Below, piece by piece: positions 275 through 55,820 of a stretch of 64,000 nucleotides of DNA. The stretch spans positions 744,001 through 808,000 of the forward strand of contig JAYWIR010000034.1 in assembly GCA_036172245.1 (NCBI GenBank), given 5' to 3'. How positions within the stretch are numbered: position 1 is the stretch's first letter; each line of letters starts with the position of its first letter. The translations under genes were made by a program, and so were the position numbers. This stretch comes from Raillietiella orientalis. Taxonomy: Eukaryota. The notes beneath the pieces are model-generated. The model did no database searches, was not told where the DNA came from, and saw nothing but the letters and a program-made list of their open reading frames with translations.

Positions 275-1868
<1,594 letters not shown>

Positions 1869-2149
1869 CTAAATAGCGAGGTTATTTCATAAATTAATGC
1901 ATTAGCTACTAATGCACCGGAACTCTTGCTAATTAAAGCATTATTTCAATTAATCCATTATTAATACGATTCCATGTATGCAACACTTTAAAAATCAATT
2001 CTAAATTGTTGCTTCAAATTATTATTTGTGAGATTTATTTTGTGAAATCTGTGAAAATGAGTATTTTCAGCCTGCAGGTGGTGTGCTTATTTATAACAAT
2101 GGAATTTTCCTTTATAAATATTAACTTAAGAATAATCTCTAGAAAGTTT

Positions 2150-3150: not shown

Positions 3151-3241
3151 AACGGATTGTTTTTGGATTAATTTTGTTCTGTTCTGGAACAAATGACATT
3201 TCAAACAATTCATTACCTGTCATTAATGAATCATAAAAAGT

Positions 3242-3310
3242 CACACACACACACAGATATACATACATACACACATACATATACAGACATATATAGGTAG
3301 GTAGGTAAGT
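3242..3310. repeat. Compound microsatellite (CA)n/(CATA)n/(TAGG)n
   Basis: cacacacacacacagatatacatacatacacacatacatat...aggtaggtaggtaag seen directly. Confidence 0.85.
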
Positions 3311-5010
3311 ATGCAGGTATATTTGATCACCAGTTGTATTCTTTGTGAGAATGCATCATTAGATTTTCGAATTCATTATCCCAGAGTAAAAACGAAACGA
3401 AACTTGAAACGAAAATTCTTTACCAATATCATTATAAAAACTTATTCAGCTTTCTTTTATAAGCTTTGGGTGTCATACGGTCAAAAAAATGATACTCAAA
3501 CAATGTTCTGTTCTGTCTCCCACAGTCTCTGATCATTCCTGCGAAAGTGTGAAAGATGCATAAACAAGCATTTTGCAGTTCATTCTTGTATCTTATTACA
3601 ATCAGGATGTCCCAGTTTTCAAAGGTTTCATCTCATTCGGAAATCTGCCCAAGAAACTTCAAGAGAATTTTCATTGTACTTAAGTGCTAATAATCTTGCA
3701 ACAAGCTACTTTCATTGTCAATTATTTTTAAATTTTCAAATAGTTCAACTATTTAAATCTTGCATACAGAATTTATTGGCGATTTAGTGTCCTCGAGTTC
3801 ATGGCACTTTCGTACGTGCAGATTGGAGGACCGATCTATTATGATCTAATCTGAAAGTTTTTCAACAGTGTCCACGGATCTCTTGAGAATTGTTAAAATA
3901 CTCGAGTAACATGACACTTATTGAGTGATACAGCCAGATTGTTGACATCAATTTTGAAAATTACAGTCGTTTCCTTCTTTGCTGGAGATGAACACACTCG
4001 AGGAAGACCAGACGAATGTGCAAAAAATCTAAGTAGAGCAATCTGATGAAATATTACAAATATATAGACTCCAATATATACGTTTAGTCGCAACCATGAT
4101 CACTGAAAACGTTAATTTTTATGAATGTTACATTAAATTTCTTGGGACATCTCTCACAAATTTGATAATGAAAGCTGATGGATAAAAAATCTATCTTTTA
4201 ACATATCTCACATTTCTGAAGAAAATGTCTCCGAAACATTCGCTGGTCATTGGCCATTCATTTTTGATTCATGACATCTACAGCTGTGGTTTTTTTTTTT
4301 TAGTGAGTGGGGGGGGAATGATTTTTTTAAAGGTGCATGGGTGTATTTTGAAGATATTGATAGTGATTGTTTGTTAGTTTGTATTGAAATTGGTATGTTT
4401 GCAACATATTCTAAGTGAGAACGAGGGCGTAGATGTTATGCTCATCTTCGTGCTCACATACAGATACATGCCTAAGAATGCAATTTGTCTTTGAAGGAGT
4501 AATGCCTACTTGTGGACCCATTTTATGAACGATCTGATTTGAATAAAATGTTACACAAAGTGTGAATACTGAAAAACGTGAGATGAACATACTGCCTTCT
4601 GGAAATCACCGGTAACATGTATGAGAAATGATCGTGTCAAAGGTGCGACACTGTCAACGCGGTAATGTGTAATGTGGCCTAGAAACTTAATCAAGCACAC
4701 TCGAAAGGGAGGAACAACTTTTCAAACGATAATTTGGACATATGAAAACGATAGTACAGCTTAAGATTTTCTGTTTCGTTCCAAGATTGAGCATAGCTGC
4801 CTTTGTAGTGTCACGGTTAAGACGAAGAATTTCGGCCATTTCTTGTGTACCAGTCATATTTGCAAGTGTTTCGCTTTGATGCAGTGGTCTGATTTCTTGA
4901 AAGTACACCCGTCAGTGGAATTTACAGTTGATTTGTACAATTGAACATGAACGTAGGTCTAAGAAATCAGTTTTGAAATTGCATTAGAAAAGCAACAAGA
5001 TTCTCTGAAT

Positions 5011-6490
5011 ATGAAGTGTTTTGATTTTAAAAGTTTGTGCTTATTTTGTGAGTAAAGCAGCTCACTTAGAACATGCTCTGTTTAGATGAAAAATATTACC
5101 CCGGTGCAATTTCCGATTTTTTTAATGGAGTTCAAAAATCCAGAAATGTTTCGAGCAATAATGAGATTTCGAAAAAAACACCGATTAGAGACGCAACACC
5201 CAAAGATATCAAACCGAAAGTTAAGCATGTTTCTCTAGGTGAAGGAAATCGCAAAGTTCGGTATTTAAGAAAGGAACTGACGAACTCCGACTCCACAGAT
5301 GAATTCCGAACTGTCTTTGTAGGCAACATACCACTGACCGTTAACAAACAAAAGATTAGAAAATTATTCAAAAAATATGGTGTTGAAACAATACGATGCA
5401 AATGTAAGCCACAAATGCCAAATTCATCAAAAAAGTTAGCGAAAAACAGGTACTGGTCGATCGTATCTTGTGCTGATTATTACTTGCTGTGGTATTTTAA
5501 TAACCATTAAAATTGTGCATGCTGCAAAAGTACTTGCATTCTTACTGGGTTACTAGAAAATTAAAATCCCGTTTCTAACTTTTTGTCTCTGCACACCAGT
5601 TCTCATCAATCTTGTTTGCATAATCACCAGTTTTTATTCACCGTTTTTAGCACATCAACTGACTGTCAGCAGTGCACTTTTTCAGCATATATCAAATTTG
5701 TGTCACGTGAAGCAGCCTTAGATTCACTTGAAATGAATGGATTTATAGTGAATGACTTTCACTTACAAGTAGATCTTGCTGAAAATAGCAAAATTCATGA
5801 TCATCACAAAGCTGTATTTGTTGGCAACTTGTTACTAGGTGACTCTTGAGTGCTGCAAAATTTCAGTCTTATTTGTATTCTTTAGAGGCAGAAGAAGAAA
5901 AATTACGTGCTCACTTCTCTGAATGTGGATCCGTTCACTCTGTTCGGATTATAAGAGATCCAATCACGAAAAAAGGAAAAGGATTTGGTTATGTGAACTT
6001 TAAGGTAATTAAAAAGGAATAACAGTTGATGTAATTGTATACAGAACTGTGACAGTGTTGAGTTGGCTTTGCAATTAGATGGTACAACGTTTGAAGGCAG
6101 ATCACTGCGCATACAAAGATGCAAAAGCCAACCAAAGCTTAAAGTCAAAAAGAAGTTGGACAAAAATTCCAAGATTGAATCAACATTTCATAAGAATCAA
6201 TCTGCAAATGAAGGTTGCAATAGGAAAGGCAAACTAGTGTGCATGAAACCAAGCACTTATGATAACTGCCATATAAAGAAACCTTCACAAAAAATGCAAA
6301 AAAAGTCTGACTTTTCAGTGTCTGGTTTAAATGCGTACATTGGGTTTCAGTCAACAAAAGGGACATGCCCTAAGGTGAGCAGACATGTTTATTATGACCA
6401 AAGATTTTGTATTAATAATATCTTTAGAAGATGAGAATCACAAAGTTGGCAAAAAAGCAGCGTTGGATTGCTGAGTTGCTGAATAAATGA
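5011..6490 (+). CDS. RBM34: RNA-binding motif protein 34 (Nop12-like, two RRMs)
   Basis: N-terminal YYPGAISDFF; RRM1 RTVFVGNIP...AYIKFVSREAALDSLEMNG...LQVD; RRM2 AVFVGNL..EAEEEKLRAHFSECGSVHSVRIIRDPITKKGKGFGYVNFK..DSVELALQLDGTTFEGRSLRIQRC. In-phase introns 5450-5650, 5839-5885, 6005-6044, probably 6375-6427. Start uncertain (5011 via intron 5048-5085, or 5073); end 6490 if the last intron is spliced, otherwise 6434. Confidence 0.88.
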
Positions 6491-8793
6491 CAGAATACGA
6501 CTCCAATCTTTTCTGTCTTTCTTGTTCTAAGTTCTTTGTTTTCTGCCACAGGGATTCATTGAGTTGCTGTTGGCCATAACTGAGAGCTTGTAGGCGAGCT
6601 AACTCTAATAAGATATGCAACTGTTCAGCTCCGTATTTCTTATTATGCTGCCTCTCCTGCACAAAATCTTCTTGGATTATGAGTTGCAATGGTTCAGAAA
6701 TAGAAAATGTATTCAGGCGTGCTTTTGTCAAATAAACACGAAACAAGTGCAACAAGTTCGGGAACAGCTGAATGTTTTCCTGTGATCCATTCTGCCAAAT
6801 GATGGGAAACTGCACATCACTCTGAAAAACTACATTATAAAAATTTCAACCTTATGCACAAGAAGCTTACTCCTAACATACTGCGTCCTTCAGACAAAAT
6901 TAATACCAGAAGGTTGGTGTCATAGTCCAATCTGTGAAACTGAAAATCATAATGCAACTTTTGCCACTGAATAAGATCTTTGAGAGCTGCTACATTCTGG
7001 ATTCCTGTGTATCATCAGAGCTTGGGCACAAAATCTATTTACTACCTTTTTGGTTAAGTTGACCTGGTTCCATCTGTGTCTCATCCAAAACTAAATGGGT
7101 TCCAGAACTAAGTTGTAGTAATCCTTCTCGTAGTCTGTTGGTGTTGTAATCTTTGCTAAAAACTCTCAGTCCATTTATTACGTCTCAGATGCTCACCAAG
7201 GTATTAAGTGTGCTGTATTCAAAGTGTTCAAATTCAAAGAGAGAAAGGAACTTCTATCCACCAGCTGTTGTATAACCTCGTATAAACTAGCTGCAAATTT
7301 CTTGCTTTTAATACCACAAATGTTGAGTGCAAATTTGCCAAGAATAGTGACATTCTTATGGCTGTGACTAGAAAAAAGCTCGAACATTCCTTTACGAAAT
7401 TGTCTCACATGCTGGAGAGGAGATGACACAATAGGTATTCAGCAGCACAGGAGTCATCACAGAGCAGCCTTTGTAGCAAACAAACCAATTCAAATCGAAC
7501 TTGTTCAATGGAGTTCCCATCTTGTGGAAAAGAGTTTTAGCATACTTGAACCAGAAACTCACCTGGAACTGGAGTAGGTATGGAATCAACATAAGGATTA
7601 CAATGCATAAAAGGACATGTGAAGAGAACATGGACTACAGGAAGTAAATGATCTTGAGCTTCAGATGAATCACATAGATCCTCTAATGGAGGCATACATA
7701 AGATGCCAATGAGATCAATCAAATCATTTAATTTCCAGCTGGGATCATTGTCATAAACCTACAAAACTGACTACTATTTCTGTTTGAAGACTCACTTTTG
7801 CAACACAGCTGTGAACTTCTGGAAATGCTTGCAGTTCCACATCCCTAGAGTCACTGGTATCAGTCAGTCTGTTTTCACAGTCAAGACGGGGATGTTTTGA
7901 GTTACTGAGGCCAAGACTGTTAGAAGTAATTTTTCTCTTGTGTGTTTGCTGCAACATTTCCTGCTTTTCCACTTCATCTATTTACAAAGCTAAGGATAAC
8001 AGTCATTTCATAAAGGATATCTGTTTAGTCCATTCATTTCTTCCAGGCACAGAAATGCACACAAAACTATACCGCTGCTTAGTTACCATAGGATCCATAA
8101 ACTGGGCATCTGTGACCTGAAATACTATTATAAAATAGCTAAGTCTCGAAATTTGAGTACCTCATCATTTAAGATATCCCGAAATCTTCCTGTCTTCTGC
8201 CTTACACCACCTGCATTCTTCTCTGCTACGTTATAAACATCGAGAAAATACTCAGGATCCAGCATGTCCTGAATCATGCCTTGGAATCTCACAAGCTGAT
8301 GTTGTTTTACATGTTCACCTGTGGAACCTAGATTTAAATATGGAACCTAGATTTACCAAATCAAAATACTGAAATAAAAATATTGTTTAAATACTTGTCT
8401 CAGTGATTCCGAAGAAAGCTTCTCCGCGAAAAATTCCGTAACTCCCGTCTCCCAGCCAACTTTGCATGATATGGCATCTGGAACATTCAACATTCAGTAC
8501 TAGTTTACATCATAAAATTGTAGCGCTTGCATCAGCGCACAAAATACAGATTTTGCTAAAATAGAGGATGACTGATATCAACACATTAAAAAAATGAAAA
8601 CTGCCACTATTAAATGAAAACTTGATTCTCATTTCAGGTGATTAGTTTTAACAGTTGGTCTATAAAATTTTAAATTATTTACGAAATTTTTGATACTCTT
8701 GGAGCAGCTTGGAGTGACACTGTCCACACTCTTACCAAAAATATTATCAATGATGGTCAGTGGGCAATTGATCCAACTAATAGCAGCTGGCAT
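6438..8793 (-). CDS. MCMBP: Mini-chromosome maintenance complex-binding protein
   Basis: Spliced translation: [105 protein letters not shown], all matching remembered MCMBP blocks. Exons include 8793-8736, 8477-8395, 8346-8161, 8116-8021, ~7975-7796, 7758-7563, and from 7520 onward. Confidence 0.93.
7976..8020 (-). other. Putative U12-type (minor spliceosome) intron in MCMBP; 3' boundary uncertain
   Basis: Phase-0 donor CAG|ATATCCTTT at 8020; read-through hits TGA five codons later; branch-like TCCTTAGC at 7996-7989. Confidence 0.7.
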
Positions 8794-11700
8794 TTTCCCG
8801 CAAAATAACACAAATTCAAAACAAGGCTGCCATCACTAATTTTCATTTATATAGTTTAATAAACGTGCACAATAAATACAGCAAAGTCGTAATTCGTGAA
8901 TTCAGTTTTTTTTTATTGCACAAAAAGTTCATTTTTAAATAATTTGAATTTTCAGTTTGATCAGGTATACAAACAATTTTCATTTGTAGAACTGAAATAA
9001 GTTTATTTCAAGAATTTCCAGATAAGACGATTTGGGGAACAAACGAGCTTCAGGTAAAAAAAAAAAAAAATTCAGTCTCATTAGAACTCATTTATTGTTC
9101 ATTTGATATGTTCTGAAACAGCGTTCATATTAAAGATTCTTGATATCCTCATCTTATGATTTATCTTAAATGCTACTGACAAGTGTGCAAAATCTGTTGG
9201 GATCCCATTTCGAATGACCTTTATGTGCTTAAAAGTATTGAGAAATGTGTGTCTTTTCATATCATAAAATCCATTCAAAGGAAGAACGAGGATAGCTGAA
9301 GTCTGCGATGGCAATTTACTGGCATTGTATTTTTACGATTTTCCAAAGAATCCTTGGAATCATCATTTACATTCATCAGTTTATTCTAACCACAAATAAG
9401 CAATCAATAAGCGAATATAGTTATCATCAGAAAACACTACAAGATTATGTCAGTGCATATGAGAATTACAAAACATTTAGAATCCTATAATCTGAATATA
9501 AGGGAAGATATAGTCTGAAAATAAGTTCCGTCATTGTTAGGAAATAGTAACAAAAGGATTAGCGACTGAAAAGAGATTATTGCATTGTGAAAGCTGAAAT
9601 TTTCCTCTTTTAGGATGCTCTTACTATTTATTATTACAAGATTGCTACATTATGAATTACCAAATTAAGGATCACTGAATTTATAAGATATATAGAGTGA
9701 CATCAATAAAAAAATAAATCAGAATAACTGGTTAGAGGAAATCCCAAACAGAACAAAGAATTCTTTTACGTCTACAAAGTGCACGATAAATTAAAATAGC
9801 ATACGAATCCTTCTTCATGGATTTTCAGCATAATTTTTTGATGTACTTCACATTTCTCTTTACGGAATTTCGGGTATTAAAGTTCTTTTTGCTGTTAGAA
9901 CACTTTTCACTATTCTTAATCTGTCTAGGATTTTTGGCAGAGAGCTGCAGAATGTGAGGATTTCCAAAAATTATCTCATGACACATATAAAGAAAGTTGG
10001 GCGTGATATAGCCTCTTTCATAACGAGATTTATCGTTCTTGTTTTTTTCTTCACGAATACTCTCCCCCCAAACGATGAGGGTAAACGAATTCGATAGTCT
10101 CTGGCTCCAAGAAGACTGTGAATTCATGATTCCTGCTTTATAGAAGGGGAGTCTCTATAATCAATTGTATAGAGCCATAAGTTTATTAGGTTCATTACTG
10201 CTTGGATGAGTAGTAATGAGAGATTATCTGCAAGTCAATCTACAGTTTGAAAGCAGCTCGTTTGTAAGTAAATAAAGGATATCTTCATTTAGACTTACTT
10301 TCTGTCTCTAGGAGGAAATTTCCCTCCACCTACATTAACAATTTTGAAGTAAAACAGCAGAACAATAGCGAAACCGTTCAGCTGTGGAACACAAGTCAAC
10401 TGGAGTGTACTTTCTGCAGTGCTATGCCACAGAGACAATCATTGCACTGAAATTGTAGAAAGACTTGAATCCTTAATTCCTGAAGATTTCTTGATAGTGA
10501 ACTCCTCATCGAAAGTGCATTATTTGTCCTCTGCTTATTCCAGACAAAACTTATATTGAGGAAATCAACTTTTAATCCTCTAATCAAATATCACAACCGA
10601 TGATTGTTTACGTTTCCATCTTTTTACCAAAGTACATTCTCGAAGTATTCTTATTCAAAATGAATGGAAAATCTCAATGAATCAAAAAAGGAAATCATCA
10701 ATAAACGATTTTAAAGTAACACTGTATCATACGAACTGATGAATATGAACGCGATTTGATTTCTAGATGCTTCTACTGATGGAGCTACCACAAATAAGCT
10801 GGAAAGAAGGATCAGAATAAATAATAATGAATGACGACAGTATCTTCAAAGGCCGACCACAATAATGATATAGAAATTATAAATGACGGAAAAATGAAAT
10901 GATGTATTGATGACAAAATAATGCATCGATATACTAAATTAATTTTCAATTCCCGAATTCTAGCGTTTTCGACATTCATTATCATACTTGCTCCAAATGC
11001 GCTTCCTTACTGACATGACACTAAAAGTCAGAAAGCTGTTTATTGGCTCATTACTTCGTTTGTCTTCGTGATCCTGTGAGCAGGGGTTGCACTATTTGAG
11101 CGGCTCGTTGATCTTCGATCTACCTAGCGAAAGTTGTATCATGACGCATTTCCTTCTCTCATGCAATCCAATGGATAGAGAGATCCTCTTGGACAGATGT
11201 GCTATGAGTAAAAGACATTCACTCAAATCTCTTCGAGATTGTCAGTATTTGCTTGTTAACTTTCGAGTGAAAGAAGGGTATGCATATGTAGAAAAGGCAT
11301 GTCTCTGAATATTATAAGATCGCTTTTTCCGACGTATTCACTTAAATTTGACGAATAGTTTCTTCCTCATTCGTCGGCTTTGCAGATTTGCTCCATTGCA
11401 AGTGAGTCTCTTGTCATAATGTTGTGAACACAGTCTGTATAATTGTTAAAGCTGATTTTCACTGTCCACTACCTAGTACAGTTGCAACTTTGTCAAACTC
11501 AATGGATCTTAAAATTATACTGTAGATAACAGGCGATCACACTTGGAGATGCAACCATCTGAAATATTTCTATCACATCGAATTCCAACTTTTATTTTCG
11601 CTAGCGTATTTTTATTTTGAATTCTAAAATATTTAGAGTCCAAAATAAAAATAAATCTCTAAAATAGAGTCTCTAAAATATTTAGAGACTTGACAATCAT

Positions 11701-11899
11701 CACATATAATTTTAGATCACTAATGAAGGTTGGAGAATACTAAATAGCTATGCATCGCAATATTGCCGAAAATCTTGAAATCGGAGCTACTAAACTGAAA
11801 CGTCATCGTCTTTATATCAACAATTTTTTTCTCGTAATTCTATGAATTCCACATTCCAGAATTTATTTGAAGGATTCGGAGTAGTTATTCTCTCTCCTA

Positions 11900-12650
11900 C
11901 CTACAACATAAGCCTCTCTGATGTAGGTAATATCACCAAACAAGCTTCGTTATTGAGAGGAAGTTATTTGCAAACTGAGAAAATAATAGCAAGTTTTGAA
12001 GGTGCCATAAGCAAATTAGCAGCAAGAGCTGATTCTATATGTATCTAACGTTTAGGAATATCCTATAAAATATATCAGGATATTCAATCAGCATCTTCAA
12101 CCGTTAGTACTTGAATGCCAAAGGTCCACTTCGATACTACAGATCTTTAGCAAAAGGAAAAACGGATTTCGATCCTTTACTTCGATAAGCATTAATTCAT
12201 TAAAAGAAATATGGAGATTGTAAACTGAACTACAAAACTTGCAGCCGTAATATGACGCTTGGTGAAGGAAGTTCTGAAGGCTCACGCTCAGGTAATCATA
12301 AATTTCCAAGTGTAAGTCCGTCATAACGATTACGTGGCACTGTTCGAGGTCAGTACTCAAGCACCTTATATAACTCACCTTATTTTCTATTAACAGAAAT
12401 GAATTTGGTTTTACAGGTCTCTATAAAGGGAATAATTTGAATATGACGAAGATTTCAGATATGAAAATCATCCCGAGTTCATTTGTTTTCAAGTTCTGAA
12501 CTTAATTCAGTGGTTAAGAATCTTCTGCATCAGATGATAAAAGCTGAAGCTTTTATTGCTTGATACAATGGTGCAGAAATATTTGGTGATTTCTATATCG
12601 ACTTTTCACTTCCTTTTTATTGGATGAAAAGTAAATGCCATTTGACTAAA
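11900..12650 (+). mobile_element. Degenerate LINE (CR1/L2/Jockey-like) reverse transcriptase relic
   Basis: Decayed RT motifs appear in the expected order: SLL...EKII (~11945-11990), gatctttagcaaa (DFSK-like, ~12142), K.YG and L.KEVL..HAQVIIN (~12205-12305), gaggtcagtactc (QGSVL-like, ~12345), QWC...KCH (~12565-12640). Many stops and frameshifts. Confidence 0.45.
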
Positions 12651-12920
12651 CAGAATGTTTGATTTTGCAGCAATTTTATCTTAAATGTTTCAAAAGACTC
12701 TCTTGAATACGAATGTATGTCGTAATCAATAAATTGGATATGTGATAAAAGGATTTGAGACTTTGCATAATGAATGCAAGGGTTGCATGTAGTTTCTATT
12801 TGAACACATTTTGAATGTGTGAATAATGAAGCTAACAACAACAGTTGCAAATGGCCATCCTGCTTATATTCACAGGAAAGGTCACGTTGCGGTAAAATTC
12901 AGTCTCAAGAAAATGAAAAA

Positions 12921-13703
12921 ATGTACAGGAAATATATGAAATTACTGGATAATTGGCCCATTGATCCTACAAAAAATAACAGGTAATTAGATTTTGTTCA
13001 TATGGAAGAATGTATAGGTGTGAGATACATTGATAAAGGATGAAAATAAGATCACATTTCTGTTTGACTCAGTTTCTGTATGAATTCAGTTGTGAGTGAT
13101 TTCTTAATTCATGTTGTGCAGTTAACAAATTTTTCATTATGGTTGTTTCAGAACGGTAGAGTAACATGAAATTTTCAAGATTAACGTTAAATAATTTTCT
13201 TGAAATATGTCAGCATCAGTAGTAGTCTCTTTTGTCAGTAGCAGCTGTAGTAGTGTATCAGTAGCATTCTCATAGTAATTTTTATACTTCGTGATTTTTC
13301 AAAATTAATACTTCAGTTTCCTTGATATGATTCCTTACTGTTCCCAAAATGACTAATGTTTGTTGTACTAAGAAATTTTTTACAAAATTGGAATTTCAGG
13401 GATTTAAGTGCCTATTTGAGAAAATTTGTTGTTGCAAAATTCCGTGATAACAAAGAGAACAAAATAGATTTGGCTGGATGTGAACAGAATTATCAAAGTT
13501 TGCTTCGTATTTCCACAGACTATTACTTGAAAAAATATCCATGCTTACATGTTTCTGGAGCATTGGGTTTATCCTATGATGATTGCAGATACATTAATTC
13601 TACTAGCACCTTAGAAGCCTTGAACAAAAAGAGAAAGCTTTTTAGTTGGCTTACAGAGAAACGGAAACATGAACCAGTGAAAGACTCACCCATAGAGGCA
13701 TAA
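12921..13703 (+). CDS. UQCC2: Ubiquinol-cytochrome c reductase complex assembly factor 2 (Cbp6 ortholog), 2 exons, 121 aa
   Basis: Exon 1 12921-12982 (MYRKYMKLLDNWPIDPTKNNR), GT-AG intron 12983-13399, exon 2 13400-13703 (DLSAYLRKFVVAKFR..CEQNYQSLLRISTDYYLKKYP..GLSYDDCRYINSTSTLEAL). Parallels human UQCC2 ([52 protein letters not shown]). The ORF track shows only exon 2 with a false start. Confidence 0.9.
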
Positions 13704-13708
13704 CTAGG

Positions 13709-14737
13709 ATGTGTGGTCTGTATTTTAAAAATTGTCTTCAAAGACTTCATGTACCTGTTATGGCAAGAGAAGTTGTGGAAGGTTTGCAAATAGAGCCTAA
13801 AGGGACATACATAGATATGACATTTGGTGCTGGAGGACATACCAAAGCCTTGCTTGAAACTGACAGCACTATAAGAATAGTTACCATGGATAGAGACCCA
13901 GTATCCCATAAGCTGGCCAAAAGTCTTCAAGAAGAAGTGAAGCATCAAGTGATCCCATTAAAGGGGAAATTTAGTAACCTTCCTGCATTGTTGGATGAAA
14001 TTGGCATTTTTCCTGGTTCGGTGAATGGTTTTATTTTTGATTTGGGGTGCTCTTCAATGCAGCTGGATCAAGCAGAAAGAGGATTTTCTCATACTAAGCC
14101 AGGCCCTTTGGATATGCGTATGGACAATAGTGAAGACTCATTAACAGCTGCCGATATTGTTGCATATTGTGAGGAAGATTACTTGGCAAAAATCTTAAAA
14201 GCGTATGGAGAGGAAAGAGCTTCAAAGAAAATAGCACGTGCTATAGTAGAGAGTCGGCACATGTTGGGAAAGCTGAAACTAACAACAGAACTATCAGCAT
14301 TGGTTGCCGAAGTTTTAGGTTACAAGTATGGTTTAGATATGCTGGCGAGACCTGCTCATGTAGCAACTCGCACTTTTCAAGCATTACGAATGTTTGTTAA
14401 CAATGAAATTAATGAGCTTTCCTGTGGAATGGAGTTGGCATACTATTACCTGAAAGCCGGAGGTCGTATTGCAACCTTGTCTTTTCATTCCTTGGAAGAT
14501 CGTCTTATTAAACAACACCTCACAGGACCACAGGGTTGTATTTCCTCATCATCTCCACACGTTGCATCTCAGTGGAGAAGTCCCACTACATTTCATGATG
14601 AGGAGAGTATGAAGATGGTGATGAAAAGGCGCTGGAAACAGCTTCACAAACATGTGCAATTGCCCAATGATGATGAGGTGGCCCAGAATCCACGTTCCCG
14701 TTCAGCAAAGTTAAGAATAGCCGAAAAGTGTGATTAG
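13709..14737 (+). CDS. METTL15: Mitochondrial 12S rRNA m4C methyltransferase (RsmH/MraW family), intronless
   Basis: HVPVM, YIDMTFGAGGHT, DRDP, FDLGCSSMQLD..ERGFS..GPLDMRMD, YGEER, ATRTFQALRMFVNNE, SFHSLEDR, NPRSRSAKLR: the full RsmH/METTL15 motif set. Confidence 0.96.
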   Translation: MCGLYFKNCLQRLHVPVMAREVVEGLQIEPKGTYIDMTFGAGGHTKALLETDSTIRIVTMDRDPVSHKLAKSLQEEVKHQVIPLKGKFSNLPALLDEIGIFPGSVNGFIFDLGCSSMQLDQAERGFSHTKPGPLDMRMDNSEDSLTAADIVAYCEEDYLAKILKAYGEERASKKIARAIVESRHMLGKLKLTTELSALVAEVLGYKYGLDMLARPAHVATRTFQALRMFVNNEINELSCGMELAYYYLKAGGRIATLSFHSLEDRLIKQHLTGPQGCISSSSPHVASQWRSPTTFHDEESMKMVMKRRWKQLHKHVQLPNDDEVAQNPRSRSAKLRIAEKCD

Positions 14738-15332
14738 ATTCCCAAGGAGGTAATGTATGCTTGCTTGATTATGATCAGCAATAGATCCTATTTGTTACAC
14801 ACCAAAAACTTCTATCAATACGAATGTTTCTGTTGCATAATCTTGTTTTTGAGTCTCCATTACGGTAATTCAGTCATAATTCTTTCTTCGTTGCGGTATT
14901 GGACAAACATGGAGAACCTTAGTGGTTAATATGTGTTCTCCATTCATGCAATCAGCTACACCACAAACGGTCGGATCATTTTTATAGTTTCCCATCACCA
15001 CTGTTCCATGCGGTGGCCGATTTATTGTTAGCAGAAGCACATACATTATGTGGTCTTGCTGAAACAACGAACGTTCGTACTCAGTGACTCCTTAATTTCT
15101 GAATACATCAGATTATATGGTTGCAGTTTCGTCTTGGTCGGCGTGGAAAAGAACTTCCACTCTCTACATTGAGATTGAGATATTCTCCTATACATCCTCC
15201 CTTCTCCACATTAACATTACTGTTACAGGTTTAGATGCTCCTCGCAGTAATTGGAGATTTCATGAGAATTACACATCAGTGTAAGTCAACGAGAAGCATC
15301 ATTGATAACACTTGAATTGCAATCCAGATTGT

Positions 15333-15338
15333 AATAAA
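15333..15338 (+). terminator. Candidate poly(A) signal for the UQCC2/METTL15 transcript
   Basis: First AATAAA I could find downstream of the METTL15 stop; weak evidence in AT-rich DNA. Confidence 0.3.
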
Positions 15339-18300
15339 AGTTTATGGAAAGATTAAAGTTTTTTCTCTAAACACTGCAGTTTTTCAAAAGATTGCGTTTG
15401 CGAGCAGATCCGTGTATTTCTGAATACTACGGCAGTAGAATCATGCAAAAATGGGTGCATTCATCCAGTGGGTTCATCCGTCGTCATCAAGGTTCCATCG
15501 TGATGCTGCCTCTTCGATTCTACGCTAAAGAGAGGACTCGTGGGATCCACATTGGGAGCGATGCGATGGCATGCACCTGAATCCTGCATTTGATGCTACA
15601 TCCTGCATGTAGGATCGTTAGTCTCCTTTTGATATAGACAAACTCTGCATCTTCACAAGAATATTTGCTTCTGTAACGCAAGAAGCTTTCTTCAAGTTGT
15701 CCGAAGAAAGCAAAAATAATAAAAAAATAAAAAAACGGTATTGTGTTTTGTGTTTCTCTTTAGTCGCCGTCTTCTCGGATGCCATCGAATGGCATCCGAG
15801 GAAGTCTAATCCAAAAGATTCGCCGTAAGGTCTAATCCAAAGGATTTGAGGAAACTGGGAAGAGAGAGAGAGAGACAAAAAAAGCAATCCTTTAATTTCT
15901 AATTTCCACAGCAAAGTGTAGCATAATTGTCTTCGGTGTGTAGAAATGATGTGATTTTCCTATTCTGGCACCTGTGGATTGCAAAGGCATGAAAGCAAAT
16001 CTTTGTATAAGTGCTTTTGCAACCGATGGCGTAGGAAAAGTGTTTGCTTTCAGGCGTCTAGAATTTCTCTTCCGTCTAGAAGTCGTTCTATCGTAAACGA
16101 TTCCTTGTTCTATATTATTGTTATGGAGCGTTAATAGAGGGTTATTTTGAAATTTGTGCTCCCCACAGGCGGGGTGCTGACGTATCTATCCGTTCGTTCG
16201 TTCTTGCAGCATCGTACTTACGAATGTGGAAAAAAACTTGGAAGATGTCTGCAAGGATTTGAACTTTGGGGCTCCCCTTTTTGTAGATTTCGGTCTGCTT
16301 CTCCTCCCTCATTATTTTCCCTGTGTTGGCAGATGTTTTCTTCATCCCTGCTTCGTGATCTATTCTTCCGCCTCATTTGCTTTGATTTCTTATTTTGTTT
16401 AGCGCCTGTTTGGAGAGGTACTTTCTGCGCGCAAACGATGGATCATTTTAATTTTATGAAATGGACTGAGGCATCTTTTGGTGGTTTCATGCATGCAGTA
16501 AATCAAAAAGTTTCTCTGTTCTGGGCGGGATCGAAGAGGCCCGCTAGCTTGGTTGAGAAAGAAATGTAGATTTGATGTCATCCTCAGTCCAATTTTTCTT
16601 CCCCGTTTCCCATGTTTATGAAATAGCCTTCGATCAATTAAAGCGAAAGAATTCTTTTTGGTGCGGATCGTTTCTTTGCGGTACTTGCCCGAGCGTTCAA
16701 GAGTTGGTCCAGATTCACAATTGGCCATTTGTTTCCCGAGTAGTGATTTTTGCGCATGGTCGTAAGAAATCATCACCATTATGCTGAGTGACCGGGTCTT
16801 TATTCTTTTGTACAATGTGATTTACAGATCACGACTTACTCCCGTGTGCCGGTTGTAGTTTCTTTCTTTCTTAAACCACTCGGCTGCACTCTCGGTCAAA
16901 CCGTTGGAAAATCTCTCCGTGGTTTCTTGAAGTTTTCCGTGGATTTCTCTTCCGGTCGCGTGATTTTCTCAAGTTGTGGCTAAACACGTTTTCCTATGGC
17001 GTGGTCCGCTTCATCCCGTTTTGAACACCCGTTTCCCCCTCCACCTTGGTTCAGGACGGTGATGTCGGCAAACGGAACGAATCCGCTTTTCCGTCATTGC
17101 CATTGCTTCCGAACACTGGACGTGTTGAGCTTTCCTTTCGTGTCGACGCAAGCGTTTCTCGGTGTCCGCGGTTCCCTTGCGCATCACCGTAAATTTCGTT
17201 GCTGAGGTCTCCGTGCACAGGATTCCCGGTCAGCACGCTTGCCTCGGAGAACGGATTCGCCTGTCGAGGGGACCAGCCTCCCGTGCCGTCGGTTTTGGCA
17301 TCGGGACCTCCGCGAGTTTAAAGTCTCTCCACGTCGGCGGAGTCCCAGAGGTAGGAGGCAGGATAAGCCGCATCTCCATCGTCGTGGAGCTTGATCAATT
17401 CCCATTCGTTGGGAGTGCGTCCGGCCGTTGGCCTGATGCGATGCTCGGATGCTCCGCGATCCGCTCTGCTTTTCTGATGACTCGGAAGCACTCGGAGTAC
17501 ACGAGTCTTGCAGCAAGAAGATGTTGGGCTCAGAGGTCTGCTGCTGGTCATGTGGGTCGGATCTTTCTTCTCGCTTCGTCTGACGGTGCCCCACTCCGAC
17601 GATTCGCGTGCGTGCTATCTTCGCCCTTATTCGGGTCGTCGTCGCGGCTGCTTTCCGAGTGTTGCTGATTTTCGGTATCGAGGAACGGACGGAGGCGTGC
17701 GAACCAGAAATGGGACGAAAGGCAGGGCGACCTGTCGGACCTCGCTCGGTGGCGACCGAAGCTCTTCGCATCTTGGCCGGCAAACAAAGGAAGGTCTGGG
17801 AAGGAAGGTGCACGGCTTTCACGCACGCACCCGCAGGCTTCCTAGACCCAGCTTCGCAATTGCAAAAGTCGACTGGCGTAAGCCGCATTTGACCGTTCTC
17901 TTCCGAACGAGACGCGCGAGGAGCGGGAGCGGACACTCCCGGATGTGTCTCTTCGTCCACCTTCCTGTACGTGTGAAGGCGAAGACGAAGACTGGTGGCA
18001 TCGTCTGGGGTCCGAATTGCACGCGTCCCCGTCGTTGGTGCCCACTACAGTGGCGACTCGAACAGAAGGAACGGAATAGTTCCTCCCGACCTTCCTGTGG
18101 AGCTCCGGATTCGGGGCGACGCCAGGAAATCGCCGACGAGCTTTTGCTCCTCCGTCTCGCTACCGTCTCCCCTGCCTCCAGCTAATCCTGTTGGAGGCAA
18201 GCCTGGAGGCCTTTGTGTGGCCAAGGCACGCTTCCCTCGCACGCGCTCCCGTCTGCGGAGTCGTCAGCGACCACTGAGACACCTGCTGGATTCGTCAGCC

Positions 18301-23330: not shown

Positions 23331-25916
23331 TCACTCCAGCTGCTCCAAGAACGATGGCGCCTTGAAGTACTCGGGGACGGCCTCGTCCAGGCGGGCGATG
23401 ACCTTGTAGATGGACTTCTTCCAGGAGGGCTCCTGATCTTTCCCCGAGGCGATGGCGCTGTAAAACTCCTTGACCGTCTGCTCCATGACAGGGCAGAAGT
23501 GAGGGGGCACCTGCGAGGGAGTGCGTCCGTGAGCCCGCGGATCCGTGAGATCCCCTCCCTACCTCGATGTGGTTGTTGCGGTTGTAGTGCAGGTTGAGGA
23601 CTTTGAAGAGCTCCGAGTCCGCGGTGACGCGCAGGGCCGCCTCCGGCTGCTGCGCGCCCTCCACCACCGCCTGCCGGGCGAACTTCTCGATTTGGATGTA
23701 GTAGAACTCCCTGCGTGGGACGGGGGTGTAAGGGGGTGGGAGAGGAGGGAGAAGTGGACTACTCACCGGAAGTTGGAGAACCATTTGACCAGCTGGGCCG
23801 TGTTGTTCTTGTTGAAGCGGACGTCCGGGAAGTAGGTCTTAAGCACGGAGGAGCTGGGGTAGCGCGTCCAGAAGAACATCAACTTGGCTTTGCGCAGGTG
23901 CATGGGGGTCAGCGTCATGGACGCCTGGGGGCCCCCGTCGTAGGCCGATACCTCTACTCCAGGAGGTGGGTCCGCGTCCGGTTCGCTCTTGAGCCCGGCG
24001 AAGAAGCCGTCGGGGGACTTGCCAGGGGGGCGATGCATCCCGTGGAAGGCCGCGGCGGCGGCGCCGATCCCGTCATCACCCTGGTGAGAGCGGCCCGGGC
24101 GGAAGGCCGGGTAGCGGACAAACAGCTCCGACTGGTGCAGGCTGGGGTTCGGGATGGCGACGCTGGTGGGGAGGGGTCCCGGAAGCAGTCCCGGGGGAGG
24201 GTAGCGGGGCCGGGAGCATTCCTGGTAAGCGGAAGGAGGGGCGACAGGAGAAGCGGCGGCAGGAGAGGGTCCGTGGCAGCTGCGCGAGGGCGCCGCCGCC
24301 GCGGAGGGTCGGCCCGCGACCAGGCAGCTGTGGTAGTCTGCCACCGGGACTGCGTCGCCGCCCCCGTCCGAGAGCCTCCCGCCGCCCAGCCTCTGGACCA
24401 TCCGCGCGTCCGTGACCTTCGCTCGCTTCCTCCGCGGGCTCATCACCAGGCTGAGGGCCTCCCGTTGCTCCGCGTCTGATTCAATTTCTAGACTGGAAGC
24501 GTCCTGGCTGTTGGCGGAGTCGAAGGCGGCATCCCAGCAGTACTTGGCGCTTGACACCGGTGGGGAGTTCGCCGGGACGACGATGCGCCCCCCCTCCGGA
24601 GGAGACGTCCTGCGGATCCGGAAGCCGTTGACTGGGAACCTCTGCAGGGATTGCCTCTCCTCTCCCCGGGCGGCGCCGGGATGGCCGTCCCTGCCGCGGG
24701 CCAGGTAGCGCCCGACGACGGCGTCCACGAGCGACGACAGGGACGCGGCAATCTCCCTCTTCAACGCATCGGCCAGGTCGTCGGCGACCGCGCCCAGGTC
24801 CCTTCGGAAGGCGTCCTCCTCTCGGCGCTTGACATCCGCAGGGGGCATCGGCAGAGACGGCGCTCGCTGCTGCTGCGCCATGATGCGCTGGGCCAGGTTC
24901 AAGAACTGCCGTTCGGTGAGGGCCCCGTGACCATTGCGGGGCACCGAGAAGGGCGGCGTCAGAACGACGCCCCTGTCCTGAGACAGCGGCGTTTTCCGTC
25001 GGGAGAGGTGCTGCTGCTGCTGCTGCTGCTGCCGCCGCCGGTTCAGCCGCCGCCTCTGCCGCCGCTCCTCTTCCTCTTCGCGTTCTTCTTCTTCATCCAC
25101 GTCTTCCTCGTCCTCGTCGCCTTCCTCTTCCCCCGCTTCCTCCCTCTCTTCGTCTTCAACGGGGTCTTCCTCCTCCTCGTCCGCTTGGTCTTCCTCTTCC
25201 TCCAGTTCCTCCTCCTCGTCGTCCATGGCGTCCTCATCCTGGCGCCAGGACTGCCTGGGTAGAAGTCGCCGCTTCCGGCGCCTCTGCTGCTGCTGCTGCT
25301 GTCTCGCGGAGCACATCTCGTCGTACCTCCTCCGCATTTCAAACAACTTTTCTTCCATCATCTTCAGCTGGGATTTGAATTCTCCCTCGTCTAGACGGTG
25401 GACCGGGGGCCGGCGGGCGCCCATGTCGTGCTGGACCGGGAGGTAATGCTTCCTCTTCTTGCAGCCTCCCACGCCCGCTGCCGCCGAGCACATGCTGCTG
25501 ACGATTCCCTCCACGCGCAGCTTCTTGCAGACTTCTTCTTCCGCGCGCGGGGGTTTCTGCAGTTGCTGTTGCTGCTGTGTAGGAGGGAAAGGAGGAGGAG
25601 GAGGAGGAGGAGGGGTGGAAGAGGAAGGAGGGGGCGGAGGGGAAGGAGGAGGTCGCTCTTCGCCTGCGGCGCCTTCTTCCTTGGTTTCTTGCGCCGCCGC
25701 TGCTGCCTCGGCCGCGGACCCTACCTGCGCCCTCTCTTCCACAGCCGTCGCTTCCTCTTTCTTCGCGGGCGCAGGGGATGGGCCACATTGCTCCTCCTCT
25801 TCCTCCTTCTGGACGACCACTGGAGGGAACTTTTTCTTCTCCAGCATCTCCCGGAGGAAGTCGCCGCCGCCTCCCTTCTCGAGTGCGGGCGGTGGCACCT
25901 CACATGCCGTCGCCAT
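23331..25916 (-). CDS. pros: Prospero/Prox homeobox transcription factor, copy A (~825 aa)
   Basis: Exons 25916-23767, 23710-23563, 23510-23331 (GT-AG introns of 56 and 52 nt). Homeo-Prospero domain [100 protein letters not shown]-terminal motifs [39 protein letters not shown]. Start Met inferred; an upstream exon is possible. Confidence 0.96.
25007..25660 (-). repeat. Coding trinucleotide/low-complexity tracts in prospero A (poly-Q, poly-E/D, poly-P)
   Basis: (CTG)n and (GGA)n/(TCC)n runs on + translate to [19 protein letters not shown]... and PPPPPPP. Confidence 0.85.
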
Positions 25917-26145
25917 GGGGGAACGGAGAATGGGGACCGACGGGAAAACCGGGTGGTGCTGGTGGCGGCGGCAGAGGTTGCTGCTCCTGTTGCTCCTCGC
26001 GGGAACCAGGTGGCGCGTGCGCTCGCGGGAGCTCTCCGGACGGCAGACGCGAACCCACCACCACGCGCGCGCAGACTGCCTCCGCGCCCGCTCCTCTCCG
26101 CGATTCATAGCTCGCGGACGGACGCGCCCGGCAACGCCCCGACGG

Positions 26146-26179
26146 GTGACGTCACGCGTCGTCCCGGCCGTCTTATTGG
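26146..26179 (-). promoter_or_regulatory. Putative proximal promoter of prospero A: CCAAT box plus palindromic CRE
   Basis: CCAATAA (26179-26173) followed by CGTGACGTCAC (26156-26146), ~230 nt upstream of the inferred ATG; same arrangement upstream of copy B. Confidence 0.55.
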
Positions 26180-29100
26180 CCGCGAGGGGGTGGGGACGGT
26201 GCCGCCGAGGAGAGGAGGACAAAAGAACGGGGCGCGTGAGCTCGTGCGATCGCGCGCGCGCGCGTCGTCCTCCGTCTCCCGGAGCCTCCCGTGAGCCGCC
26301 GCCTTCCCTCACGAGCAATTTTCCCGCTTCCCGAGGCATGTCCGGGAAAAGCATCTGCCTCTCCCGCGGATGCTGGAGCGCGCTTCCTGGGATCGCGTGA
26401 CGGGGCGACGGCGGCGCGTCTCCGCGGATGCTGGGGCGACGGCGGCGGATGTGCCCTTCTTCCCACCCACCCCTTCCTCGCTCGCTCTCCCCCTCGCGAG
26501 GGGGAGGACCGGAAGTCCGCGCAGGAGGCGGCGACGGCGCTCCCCGTCCCCGCTGCCGCCTCCGCAGCGAGCGGCAAAGGCGAGGGGCTCCGGGGGGTGA
26601 CCCCTCGTCGGCTTCCGGCACGCTCCCTTCCACCGCCTTCGGAACACGGGGCCCCGGAGGCGGCGACGCTCTGGCCGTCGCTCCTTTTTTTCCGGTGGCA
26701 CCGTCTCCCGCTACCGTTCCCGGATGCTGAGGTGCGGTCCCGGCGCCTTTGGAGGCTTCCCTGCCTCCTCCCTCTTTCCTTCTGAGGCAACCCCGGACTC
26801 CGTGCGCGCGCGATCCCTCAACCGCATTCCTGAAGGATGGGGAGGAAGAGGGGAAGGGGGAGCACGTCCTCCTCCAGGATTGGAGTCTCCTCACGCGAGG
26901 GCGTGGGATGAGGGGGGGGGGAGGCACCAACTCATCTCCTCTCCCCTCCCGAGGTTACAGGAATTTCCCCCTCGACGCCCCGGGAATGCGAGGAGAGGAG
27001 CGCGCGCACGTCCCCGGGCGGTGCCTTGAGACGTCCTCCAGAGGAGGGGCGGTGTGTCTCCCTGGGCGGCTGAACAATGGGCAGCGAGGGCAACCCTTTG
27101 GACCCCGACCTCTTTGTTTTCGCGCGCCGCTGTCAGGACGCACCTGGCCAGACGTCTTGAGGAGGGCGGCGACGGCCTCCGCGGGTGACCTTGCGGAATG
27201 ACGCCCGAGGACGAGAGGGGAGGAGGAGGAAGAGGAGAAGGAGGGAGGGGTGGGTTCGGCTGGGGGAAGAAGGAAGAGGAGGAAGCGAAAAAGAGGCGGT
27301 GGAAGGGAAGGGGGGGGAGGGATTGGCTGGGGGAAGAAGGAAGAGGAGGAGGAAGGGAAGAGGAGGCAGGAGGCGCTCGTGTGTCCGAGGACTCTTGGGA
27401 AATGGGGCGGCGGGGTGTGGAGAGAGCCTGAAAGAATGAAGTGAGGAGGGAGGGGGTGACTCGTCATGGTGGGGGTGGGGGGAAGGGTCCCGCTGGTTCC
27501 GCTCTTTCACAACTCGCCGCAGCCTGCAGACCTCCGGCGCGGAACGTCTTCCTCAAACACCGCCGCCAGCTGTGGCCTCGGGGCGCGTGCGCGGCGATCG
27601 ATGAGGCACCGAACGGTCGGACGCACTTCGATCAAGCGGCGGACGGACGCGCGCGCGCTTCGAGGGTGAGGGGCGGGCGGGAAAGAGGAGGAGGAGGAGG
27701 GAGGAGGCTTCCTGCCACCTGCCTCTCGGATCTCCCGCTCTAGCATCCGGGAAACTAGAGGAAGGCTGCAAGGATGTTCCTGCGGTCCTCTCATCCTGGG
27801 GGAAGCCTGTCGGCCAGCCGTGAGGCGACTCCCTTCGTCAGTGAGCTGCCCTCTCAGGGGCACCGAACAGCGTGCAGCCTTTCTCGCTTTTCGGAAGAGG
27901 GTGAAAAAGGGGGGAGGGGAGAGTAGAGGGATCTCTGCGGCTTCATTTTTACTTCCTGAGAAGTCGCAAGGACAAGGCGACAGAAGGGGAATCCCGTGGA
28001 TTTTCATCCGCTCCTCCCCGTTTCGTCGCTACGGCGTAGGATTGGGAGTGGCCGGATCTCCAGTGCCCGCCGTGGAGAGACAGTCGCTCCCAGGATGTAA
28101 GGTTCTCTCCCTTCCCGGAGACGTCTGGGAACTTCCCTCAAGACGCGACCTTTTCGAGATCAGAGACAAGATCAGACCCGGGAGCTCCCCATCGGAAGGA
28201 GGGGTGTTCTGCCGACTCTCCCCTTCCTCCCTCCCTCCCGTTTGCTCCTCGACCCGGCCACACACGCAAGAACTCAAGGAGGGAATCGGAACTTCCGGAA
28301 GACATCGTCGGAAGGGTCAGGGAAGCCGCGGAAGTCGGGCCGGCTCCTCTGCCCCCCGTCTCTTTCCCTGCGGCTCCCAGCTTGCGCGCTCCTGGTGCTC
28401 CCGAGTCAGGGGGGGAAGGAAGGGGTTCCGGGGAGCTGGCGAAGCGCGCAGGGGCATGCACTTTTCTTCCCTCCACTCCTTTTTTGGGAGCGGAGGGGGA
28501 GGGGGATGCGCTCTTCCTGGGCTTGATCGATAGAAGGGGGCCGCGAGTGCGCGCGGGAGTTCTCAGCCGCAGGGCCTTCCTTGAGCAGCGCCGTGTGAGT
28601 CACGCGTCGGCACGCACCCGCACCTCCCCGCTGCCGTTAATCTCTCGGGGAGTATGCATACGCGGCGAGTCCGGGGGGGAAGGGGGGGCGCTTCCCCAGC
28701 TTCTTCCTGCGTCGCATGTCTCGCACGCTGCCACGTTTCCGCCTGGCAGGGGAAGGTCGGCCGGCCCCACGGCCGAGGCACCTCTGTCCCCCCCTTCCCT
28801 CTTTTCTTTCTTCCTGTCTTTCCCGATGCCTCTCTTGCGCCTCTCTCTCGCGCGGCAGTTTCCACGGTGACGGCTGCTGCGAAAGCGTCGGGAACGAAGC
28901 GCACGCGAGCGCCACCTTCTGCGGCCTCCGCGCCCGTGGGAAAGGCCTTCCACGCGGAGTATCCCTCTCCAAGGTCCGCGCTCTGGGAAGCGTGCGGCGA
29001 TGACGACAGGATCCGCGGAACGTTCCCGAAGCAGTTGTTGCGTCCCGCTCCTTTTGTCTCCCGGCGGAGGGATCGGCGGCTCCAGAGGAGAACATCTGAC

Positions 29101-53388: not shown

Positions 53389-55820
53389 TCACTCCGCCTC
53401 GTCCAGGAACGACTTGCTCTGGAAGTAGTCGGGAATGCTCTCGTCGGAGCGGGCGATGATCTTGTAGATGGACTTCTTCCAGGAAGGCTCCCGGTCCTTC
53501 TTCTCGAAGATGACGTGGAAGAACTCCTTCACCGTCTGCTCGACGACCCGGCGGAAGCTCTCGGGAGGCTGGAGGAGAGCAAGGGGAGGGGGGTAAACGG
53601 GCGCCAGCGGGGAGACAAGCGAGGGGTGGGGGCGACGGGCTTCCCAAGCTGTCCTCCCTTCCCTCCCGCGCGCACGCGTGCCCGCCCTCAGGAGGGCGGT
53701 GGGCTCGCTCACCTGCACGCAGCTGTTCTTGTTGTAGTGGAGAGTCAGCGTGTGGAAGAGGTCCGACCCCTCGGCGACCTGGATCCTGTCCGGGCTCTGG
53801 ACTCCTTCCCCGACGAGCTGGCGGGCGTGCTTCTCAATCTGGATGTAGAAGAACTCCCGGAAGTTGGAGAACCATTTGATCAGTTGGGCGGTGTTGTTCT
53901 TGTCGAAGCGCACATCTGGGAAGAAGGACCTCAGAACCGAGGAGCTGGGATAGCGCGTCCAGAAGAACATCAGCTTGGCCTTGCGCAGGTGGGCAGGAGT
54001 CAGCGCGGAGGAGTGGATCTGGAGTTAAGGAGGAACCGACCAACCGAACGCGCTGCGCGTGCGAGGACTAGACGGGGAGGGACAGAACGGGAGTGGAGTG
54101 AAGGAGGAGAGGGAAGAAGCAGGAAGAGCCCCCTTTTCGCATTAAAGGATATTGATGGCACCGCGTCGTCCTCGAAGAGCCGGTTCCTCTTCCCGTTCCT
54201 GCAGCAAAAAGGATCTCCAGAGATGGCCTGCAGGAAGTCCTTGTTCCCTCGTGGGGATCCTCCGTAGACGGGAGGCGAATGGAGGAATCCTCCCAGGGGC
54301 GATCCGGGTGAGCTGCGGATGAGCCTGGCCGCACCTCCCAGCTTCGGGTATCCGTTGATCGGCTCGTCGAGGACGGCTGGGAGCTGCTGCTGAGTCTGCG
54401 CGTGGGCCGCCAGGGCGGCGCCCTCGACACCAGCCAAGGACATCCGGAAGGGCAGCCCCGACTTGGGCGTCAGCCTCATGTCCGTCACCTTATTGCGTTT
54501 CTTTGGAGTGACGACCAGACTGAGGGCTTCTTCCCTGGGGTCCGCGGCTTGTCCGTCGGAGCCGCTGTCGTAGTTGCTCATCGGACTAAGCTCCGGCGAC
54601 CTCCAGCTGCCGAGACAGCATCCGGCGAAGCCGCCGCCCCCCTGGGGGGAGCCCCGGGGCGTAGCCTGCCTGTCTTCGGCCGGCAACAGCAGGGGCGGCT
54701 GCTGCTGGCGCCGCCTGTCGCAGTAGAAGCCGCCGGCTCCCTCGTCGAAGGCGCGCGCCGCCACGGCAAGGCAGCACCGCCGGCTCGGAGACGGCCTGCC
54801 CTCCGACCTCGGCGCGAAGTCGCCCTCCGAAGAGGGGCGGCGCCGCCGGCGCTTGGGGAGCTCCTCTCCGAGCTCCCGGAAGTACCTCGCGACGGCGGAG
54901 TCGATGAGCTCCGTCAAGGAGGCTGCGATCTCAGTCTTGAGGTATCGGGATAGGCTCCGGAGGTCGCACGCGGCGGTCTCCAGGGAGTCCCTGCGCTCGG
55001 TCTCCTGGAAGATCCTCATGGTTCTGCCGCCACCGTCGCGCGCAGGCGAGGAGGGGGCCGCGGCGGCGGCTTCTCCGTTCTGGTGCAGCCAGATGGCCGC
55101 CGCGGGGTCGGCGCACCCGTCCCCCCCTCCTCCTCCTCCCTTCTTCGGACCCGCTCTCTTGAAGGTGTCGCTCGCAACGCTTCTCCTGCAAGGAGAGCGG
55201 CGGCATCTCGCGTCCTGGGGTGGTAGTCGGTCCGGGGACCGACGGGACCCGGAGTACCTTTTCTTCAGCAGCGAGAGGTGGTCTTCCATCAGCTGCAGTT
55301 GGCTGCGGAAGTACTCGTCGTCGTCCGCCTGCCGCCGCCGCCACTCCTCCTCATCATCATCATCATCGCGCCTCGACGACGCGTCGTGCTGAACGGGCTG
55401 GTAGAGCTTCCTCTTGCGGCACCCCCCCACAGAAGGAGAGCGCGACTGGGGGGCGGCGGCGTCCGGCAGGCGGCGCTCCAGCAGCTGCAGAAGCGCCTCC
55501 TCCCTCTCGGGGCTGCCGCCGGTGGTGTCCTTCGCCTCGGACTTGGCCGCCACCAACTTCTCCGCTCCCGCGTCGTCGTCGCGTTCCTCCTCGACGATGT
55601 GGAGACGAGGGAAGTCGTCGGACCCGGAGTTGTCGCAGTCGTAGGCGGCAGCTCCGCTCTCACCCTCGACAACCCCGCCGCCACAAAGGTGCCGCTTGAC
55701 TTCCTCCTCCTCTTCTTCCTCCTCCCCCTTCCTCGTCCCTCCTCCCTTCTTCAGGTCGTCGTCGGCATCGGCAGACACCTTCGGGTGGCTCCTGGGGACG
55801 CCCGGAGCTTCCTTAAGCAT
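53389..55820 (-). CDS. pros: Prospero/Prox homeobox transcription factor, copy B (~715 aa, more divergent)
   Basis: Exons 55820-54153, 54012-53713, 53568-53389. [89 protein letters not shown]-terminal motifs [38 protein letters not shown]. Start Met inferred from the TATA position. Confidence 0.94.
54013..54152 (-). other. U12-type AT-AC intron (140 nt) in prospero B
   Basis: Donor TCA|ATATCCTTT (54152-54144), branch site TCCTTAAC (54031-54024), acceptor CCAC| (54013). Phase-0 removal restores the frame into the homeodomain. Confidence 0.92.

Follow-up and report, generated by a model that had tools for sequence, protein, structure and literature searches.

An intron on the minus strand of the window (the whole 64-kb stretch of DNA analyzed here) was confirmed by its sequence signals as a U12-type AT-AC intron of a prospero gene, and judging from its site and motifs it is the ancestral prospero/PROX1 minor intron, real but ordinary. 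The gene concerned (copy B) belongs to a tandem cluster of three, and we consider it quite probable that the ancestral intron was kept in this fast-evolving copy and that its removal by the minor spliceosome is constitutive and represents the only productive route. U11 would then pair with ATATCCTTT of the copy B intron and U12 with TCCTTAAC, bulging an A, and the AC located 12 nt downstream of this branch A would serve as the 3′ splice site. Unspliced copy B RNA would yield a protein without the DNA-binding domain, the RNA itself probably being degraded or held in the nucleus, and after the duplication copy A would have lost the intron exactly, while in B and C it would have persisted, lacking a usable major intron inside it. 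We infer that splicing of copy B occurs and is constitutive, and likewise the fate of any retained RNA; two points count against U12 splicing as the sole route, namely that each motif taken singly lies within chance and that a CAG is present at −6 in both B and C. The features of copy B are given by their positions in the window:

54153..55820, minus strand: upstream coding exon, predicted start at the first ATG of the open frame (55820), contains the KVTD motif
54156..54161, minus strand: weak GT (GTGCCA) located 9 nt before the AT, matching the consensus at 4 of 9 positions, in frame with the AG at −6 (143 nt)
54013..54152, minus strand: U12-type AT-AC intron, phase 0, 140 nt, same site as the PROX1/pros intron
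54144..54152, minus strand: U12 5′ splice site ATATCCTTT, fits RTATCCTTT, complementary by eye to the 5′ end of the genome's U11
54024..54031, minus strand: U12 branch site TCCTTAAC, complementary to the genome's U12
54025..54027, minus strand: branch-site TAA, a stop in the homeodomain frame; the ORF 53389..54024 starts past it
54019..54021, minus strand: in-frame CAG, possible cryptic acceptor, 6 nt upstream of the AC and 6 nt from the branch A, likewise in copy C
53713..54012, minus strand: homeodomain exon (PF05044, E 1.2e-47; PDB 1mij_A, E 3.3e-45)
54000..54002, minus strand: TGA ending the ORF on intron retention, 287 nt before the last exon junction
53569..53712, minus strand: last intron, GT-AG, 144 nt, in frame and stop-free
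53389..53568, minus strand: last coding exon (Prospero domain), by domain match

Copy B codes for a Prospero/PROX transcription factor with a C-terminal homeo-prospero domain, as indicated by its matches to PF05044 and to the PDB entries 1mij, 1xpx and 2lmd. No Pfam family matched the upstream exon (54153..55820), and its KVTD motif is also contained in the family consensus. By inspection of the sequence, the intron starts with ATATCCTTT at 54152 and terminates with AC at 54013, and its excision fuses the 556 codons of the upstream frame with the homeodomain exon, in phase 0 and free of stops. Its position coincides with the first residue of the homeo-prospero domain, residue 1 of the homeodomain exon aligning with residue 1 of the Drosophila chain 1mij_A. 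The last A of TCCTTAAC (54025) is 12 nt from the AC end, which falls inside the optimum of 11–13 nt between branch point and 3′ end given in PMC3584512. Neither motif alone exceeds chance in the 64-kb window (three RTATCCTT found vs. 2.09 expected, one TCCTTAAC found vs. 1.68 expected), so the evidence for the intron is the combination of signals: the joint pattern of donor, branch site and AC/AG matched a single time on both strands of the window, at the copy B site. The textbook AT-AC signals and the length of 140 nt claimed in the initial annotation are thus borne out by the coordinates, the 12-nt branch spacing, the phase 0 join and the matching intron of copy C described below. Further ATATCCTT motifs are located at 8013–8020 and 10275–10282 (minus strand) of the window. 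Retention of the last intron of copy B (53569–53712) would separate homeodomain and Prospero domain by 48 additional residues.

The genome contains its own genes for the minor-spliceosomal snRNAs, all scoring above the Rfam cut-offs (U12, 98.7 bits; U11, 80.9 bits; best U6atac, 91.3 bits; best U4atac, 69.5 bits), and its U11 sequence is by eye complementary to the donor, as is its U12 sequence to the branch site. CENATAC/CCDC84 plays a role for AT-AN introns. A search of the genome for CENATAC/CCDC84 produced no candidate, and the controls likewise remained without any match. One of the U6atac genes (above cut-off) and a weak U4atac match (below cut-off) are located about 600 nt apart on opposite strands (G000:C19:2292919-2293741).

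The family search returned eight exon matches, which represent three prospero genes on the same contig (C34), all on the minus strand and within about 75 kb. Besides copy B, these comprise copy A inside the window and copy C outside it:

23331-26954 (window), minus strand: copy A, U12 intron lost exactly
23767..26954 (window), minus strand: long open frame of copy A, intron-free across the homologous site 23922|23921
23711..23766 (window), minus strand: 56-nt GT-AG intron of copy A, recognition-helix region; length in copy C about 7.5 kb, absent in copy B
23331..23710 (window), minus strand: last two exons of copy A, with a 52-nt GT-AG intron (23562-23511)
G000:C34:831117-839241, minus strand: copy C, outside the window
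G000:C34:839241..839178, minus strand: AT-AC intron of copy C, 64 nt, with the donor and branch motifs of copy B at the same codon

Excision of the 64-nt intron of copy C joins a KVTD-bearing frame to the homeodomain. The intron losses of the cluster are reciprocal, copy A being without the U12 intron and copy B without the GT-AG intron of the recognition-helix region, which is kept by A and C. The domains of A and B are 66% identical, those of A and C 68% and those of B and C 60%; compared with 24 other proteins, copy A reaches 65–77% and copy B 56–64% identity, which identifies A as the conservative copy. These are aligned values, since A has a one-residue insertion, and the sequence of A used for them carried one spurious residue. 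In a tree, A, B and C fall on one side of a branch with a support of 62/84, B and C having long branches, and at this level of support a lineage-specific triplication of prospero is likely, short of demonstrated. No orthologue of copy B with more than 70% identity was present among the best 120 of 486 matches, and none of the papers listed on tandem prospero copies and on minor-intron loss among paralogs is recognizable from its entry as describing the cluster found here. A 27-nt GT...AG upstream of the site in copy A was considered as a relic of the intron and rejected, being too short and having a translation that is by eye colinear with the end of the scorpion and insect exons. Because copy A is intron-free at the site, prospero output does not wholly depend on minor splicing; the earlier claim that the minor spliceosome alone licenses functional protein would therefore apply to copies B and C and fails for copy A. 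The window also changes in composition, with 33–40% GC in positions 1–16000, which are dense in housekeeping genes, vs. mostly 55–68% in 18000–64000 across the prospero cluster. The low-GC part contains a METTL15-like open frame (13673-14737), for which the named matches among the best 120 were all from insects at about 48–53% identity, which agrees with an arthropod lacking near named relatives but points to no particular class.

The minor intron itself is well known from other animals. According to PMC3291851, the U12 intron of prospero is one of two that were found in all insect and vertebrate genomes analyzed there. The human and mouse PROX1 and PROX2 introns listed in supplement files 1 and 8 of PMC6717393 carry a 5′ 9-mer identical to that of copy B; gene family and AT-AC subtype are the same as well, and the branch site is near-identical (PMC2831892, PMC6717393). 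They differ from the copy B intron in their length, 4.0–7.0 kb vs. 140 nt, and in its location within a tandem triplicate of which one copy is intron-free. Table 2 of PMC2831892 lists fly pros as a twintron and human PROX1 as U12, i.e., without a twintron like copy B, and by that table the U12-only state is not a new arrangement.

We further examined the best 80 of 162 metagenome loci encoding a prospero relative. A U12 branch site at the same codon is followed by a terminal AC in 26 of these 80 loci, by AG in 24 and by AA in one, whereas 28 show no U12 3′ signal and one is too short; some of the 28 are transcript-like, others are intron-free or have a major-type acceptor nearby. The U12 branch A precedes the AG by 16 nt in the AG-ending loci (L081, L085, L091, L092, L094, L095 and 18 more), which possibly have switched subtype from AT-AC. 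Locus L061 has a major-type pyrimidine tract (before position 407) and an AG 5 nt before the usual junction without any U12 branch site, possibly reflecting conversion to a major-type intron, and the genomic locus L062 is intron-free at the prospero site (position 148), a loss as in copy A. The AT-AC introns of the prospero loci L083 (162 nt) and L104 (81 nt), both ending at position 2994, are stop-free multiples of three, so that retention alone would yield a long-type protein; two mite protein models (P0154, P0158) contain a 32-residue insert similar to a retained intron of this type.

The site is best known from Drosophila, where a nested U2 intron lies within a U12 AT-AC intron that, like that of copy B, is placed at the homeodomain start, U12 splicing producing pros-S and the nested intron pros-L (PMC3291851, PMC8329584). 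Unlike this twintron, copy B has no credible nested donor, and because the TAA of its branch site (54027–54025) reads as a stop in the homeodomain frame, neither an in-frame acceptor farther upstream than the branch site nor a long exon of the insect type is feasible. Among the 120 protein matches listed, 14 long-type junctions start with Ile-Ser-Phe, i.e., the donor read as codons, and end with His, and in 10 of these 14 insect long-type proteins the branch site is translated as Ser-Leu-Thr. The sole in-frame acceptor left inside the copy B intron is the CAG at 54021–54019, which at 6 nt from the branch A is too near for U12 use given the optimum in PMC3584512. We scored donors by a crude count of matching positions against a 9-position consensus; by this count, the nine in-frame GT or GC donors of copy B between 60 nt upstream of the AT and the AG matched 3–5 positions, whereas the five homology-confirmed donors of the three prospero copies matched 6–8. 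Of the two nested candidates with 5/9 matches, one is a GC donor and the other would give a 26-nt intron. The absence of an evident twintron noted earlier for copy B thus holds up. In copy C, the homeodomain frame stays open through the branch site, but an intron of 64 nt offers little space for a nested one. The Drosophila twintron moreover uses a purine-rich intronic enhancer bound by Hrp36/Hrp38 (PMC8329584); the 140-nt intron of copy B is by eye pyrimidine-rich.

The initial annotation had also noted an acceptor CAG, in frame and 6 nt before the AC, that would add Ile-His. This CAG is indeed present at 54021–54019, yet its proposed echo of the Drosophila pros-L junction does not stand out as special, the His of this Ile-His being just the CAC that closes the AT-AC intron and the decapod acceptor lying, judging from proteins, at −5 and not −6. 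The GT at 54161 matched 4/9 positions and was outscored by 96 of the 295 GTs on the minus strand at 50–58 kb. Combined with the AG at 54019, it forms a stop-free GT-AG pair that stays in frame and alters only 2–3 residues, which makes it a likely error of gene finders restricted to GT-AG introns and possibly a minor cryptic product. The predicted mis-annotation by standard gene finders is plausible, and the resulting error would probably be small. Two approaches were tried and rejected: the open frame through the copy B intron as a sign of coding, and a genome-wide set of short U12-like introns, meant to give the background rate of an AG at −6, the latter not exceeding a reversed-pattern control (3 vs. 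6; 23 vs. 23; 16 vs. 20).

If the major spliceosome joined GT 54161 to AG 54019, or if the AT donor were joined to this AG, a second homeodomain N-terminus ending in Ile-His would result. Both junctions are in frame and stop-free, the CAG at −6 recurs in copy C, shifted twintrons have been described (PMC3564746), and decapods and spiders have short long-type isoforms annotated that take only 2–5 residues from the 3′ end of the intron. Compared with the shifted U2/U12 twintrons of PMC3564746 and of dipteran ZRSR2/Urp (PMC2831892), copy B shares a candidate in-frame GT-AG pair, displaced upstream from the U12 sites by 9 and 6 nt, and differs in that its GT is a background-level donor without a counterpart in copy C. 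In copy C, in-frame GT donors do not exceed 2/9 and the best GC donor reaches 6/9. Among the 17 AC- or AA-ending groups of related loci, four have an AG at −6 vs. 0–2 with an AG at other offsets, an excess that is weak because three of the four groups look related and 12 offsets were examined. The 6-nt spacing of AG 54019 from the branch A and the disfavoring of AT-AG pairs (PMC3584512) also argue against its use, and the acceptor at −5 deduced from decapod proteins is in a different phase from −6. Taken together, we regard this second product as very unlikely. That copy B is a decaying, barely expressed duplicate with relic intron signals appears extremely improbable. Its long branch (1.23 changes per column vs. 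a median of 0.15) and a best public match of only 70% identity (best 120 of 486 matches) would agree with decay, but both frames flanking the intron are intact (556 and 159 codons), the recognition-helix residues are those of PROX1, and the splice signals are perfect in spite of the wide divergence of the B and C introns in length and sequence, which points to selection.

A third alternative concerns the timing of expression, because the intron had been proposed to act as an on/off gate for the homeodomain. Frame analysis agrees with the claimed end of the ORF at 54000, since the retained intron is read through to the TGA at 54002–54000 before the homeodomain, and the loss of the DNA-binding domain upon retention follows from this frame arithmetic. 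That part of the proposal stands; the gate itself does not follow from it, because breaking the frame does not by itself make an intron a regulated gate, and truncation upon retention is common for introns. Under the 50-nt rule, such retained RNA would be subject to decay, although this rule may not hold in arthropods. It is conceivable, if unlikely, that retention in copy B varies by stage or tissue and thereby times the homeodomain protein, e.g., via limiting U6atac. Minor introns were proposed as switches set by the U6atac level (PMC3728624), and in such switches, as in copy B, one minor intron is surrounded by major introns and prevents the full protein if retained; that model was built on regulation measured in human cells. 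According to PMC6717393, shorter minor introns are more often retained in mouse, those of copies B and C having 140 and 64 nt, and inefficient splicing is not true of all minor-intron genes. Against regulation, no sequence feature at the copy B intron marks it, and the open donor frame is ordinary, as 45% of 10,000 shuffles are equally stop-free. Because copy A bypasses the intron, a gate could not control prospero function overall and would be limited to B and C. Intron 2 of prospero in Drosophila U4atac mutants represents a positive control for retention (PMC13550442).

Constitutive minor splicing of copy B thus remains the reading we prefer, and it has to be viewed against the isoforms of related species. 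While the twintron is limited to insects according to PMC3291851, long-type junctions were present in eight of ten non-insect arthropod clusters (three of spiders, four of decapods and one of a stomatopod; up to 15 members listed for each); among the members listed, the scorpion cluster showed the short form only and the barnacle cluster neither form clearly. Both forms are annotated for at least eight named species, including Parasteatoda tepidariorum, Stegodyphus dumicola, Portunus trituberculatus, Penaeus japonicus and Panulirus ornatus. For mouse Prox1 and Prox2, supplement file 6 of PMC6717393 has entries on the alternative use of 5′ and 3′ sites, which together with the annotated arthropod isoforms indicates that members of the family commonly splice this intron in alternative ways. 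The residues alone suggest that the nested donor is in phase 1 and that the acceptors lie at −5 in decapods and at −11 or −14 in spiders, and some of the spider and decapod long-type models may be artefacts of gene finders. Long-type junctions are annotated in the models P0211, P0218, P0142, P0172, P0234, P0250, P0269, P0283 and P0147 from spiders, decapods, a stomatopod and an isopod, and decapods have several alternative long forms. On the DNA level, locus L133 shows a full twintron layout, i.e., an AT-AC intron of 1712 nt ending at position 2994, a GT donor 25 nt past the AT and, 26 and 5 nt ahead of the AC, AG acceptors that are in frame. In titles and the openings of abstracts we found no report of a prospero twintron outside insects, most subscription papers lying outside the coverage of the search.

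Should the twintron be pan-arthropod, the lack of one in copies A, B and C represents a loss, and the missing twintron of copy B may be such a case. A further reading, to which we give little credence, would have duplication replace alternative splicing: a pan-arthropod twintron would have been given up after the triplication, copy A dropping the intron and B and C losing the nested one, so that the minor spliceosome's activity would determine the ratio of B plus C to A. Each copy would then have its own homeodomain N-terminal arm, with B and C keeping perfect U12 signals, and a ratio between genes would do what the twintron does within one gene.

As a single case, the copy B intron matters little, adding one more example of a best-known minor intron, and the interest lies in its three-copy context. 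Confirmation of the long isoforms of spiders and decapods at the DNA and RNA level would shift the twintron's origin from insects to the base of the arthropods. Neighboring paralogs with and without the same minor intron represent a natural experiment on whether such introns limit or time expression.
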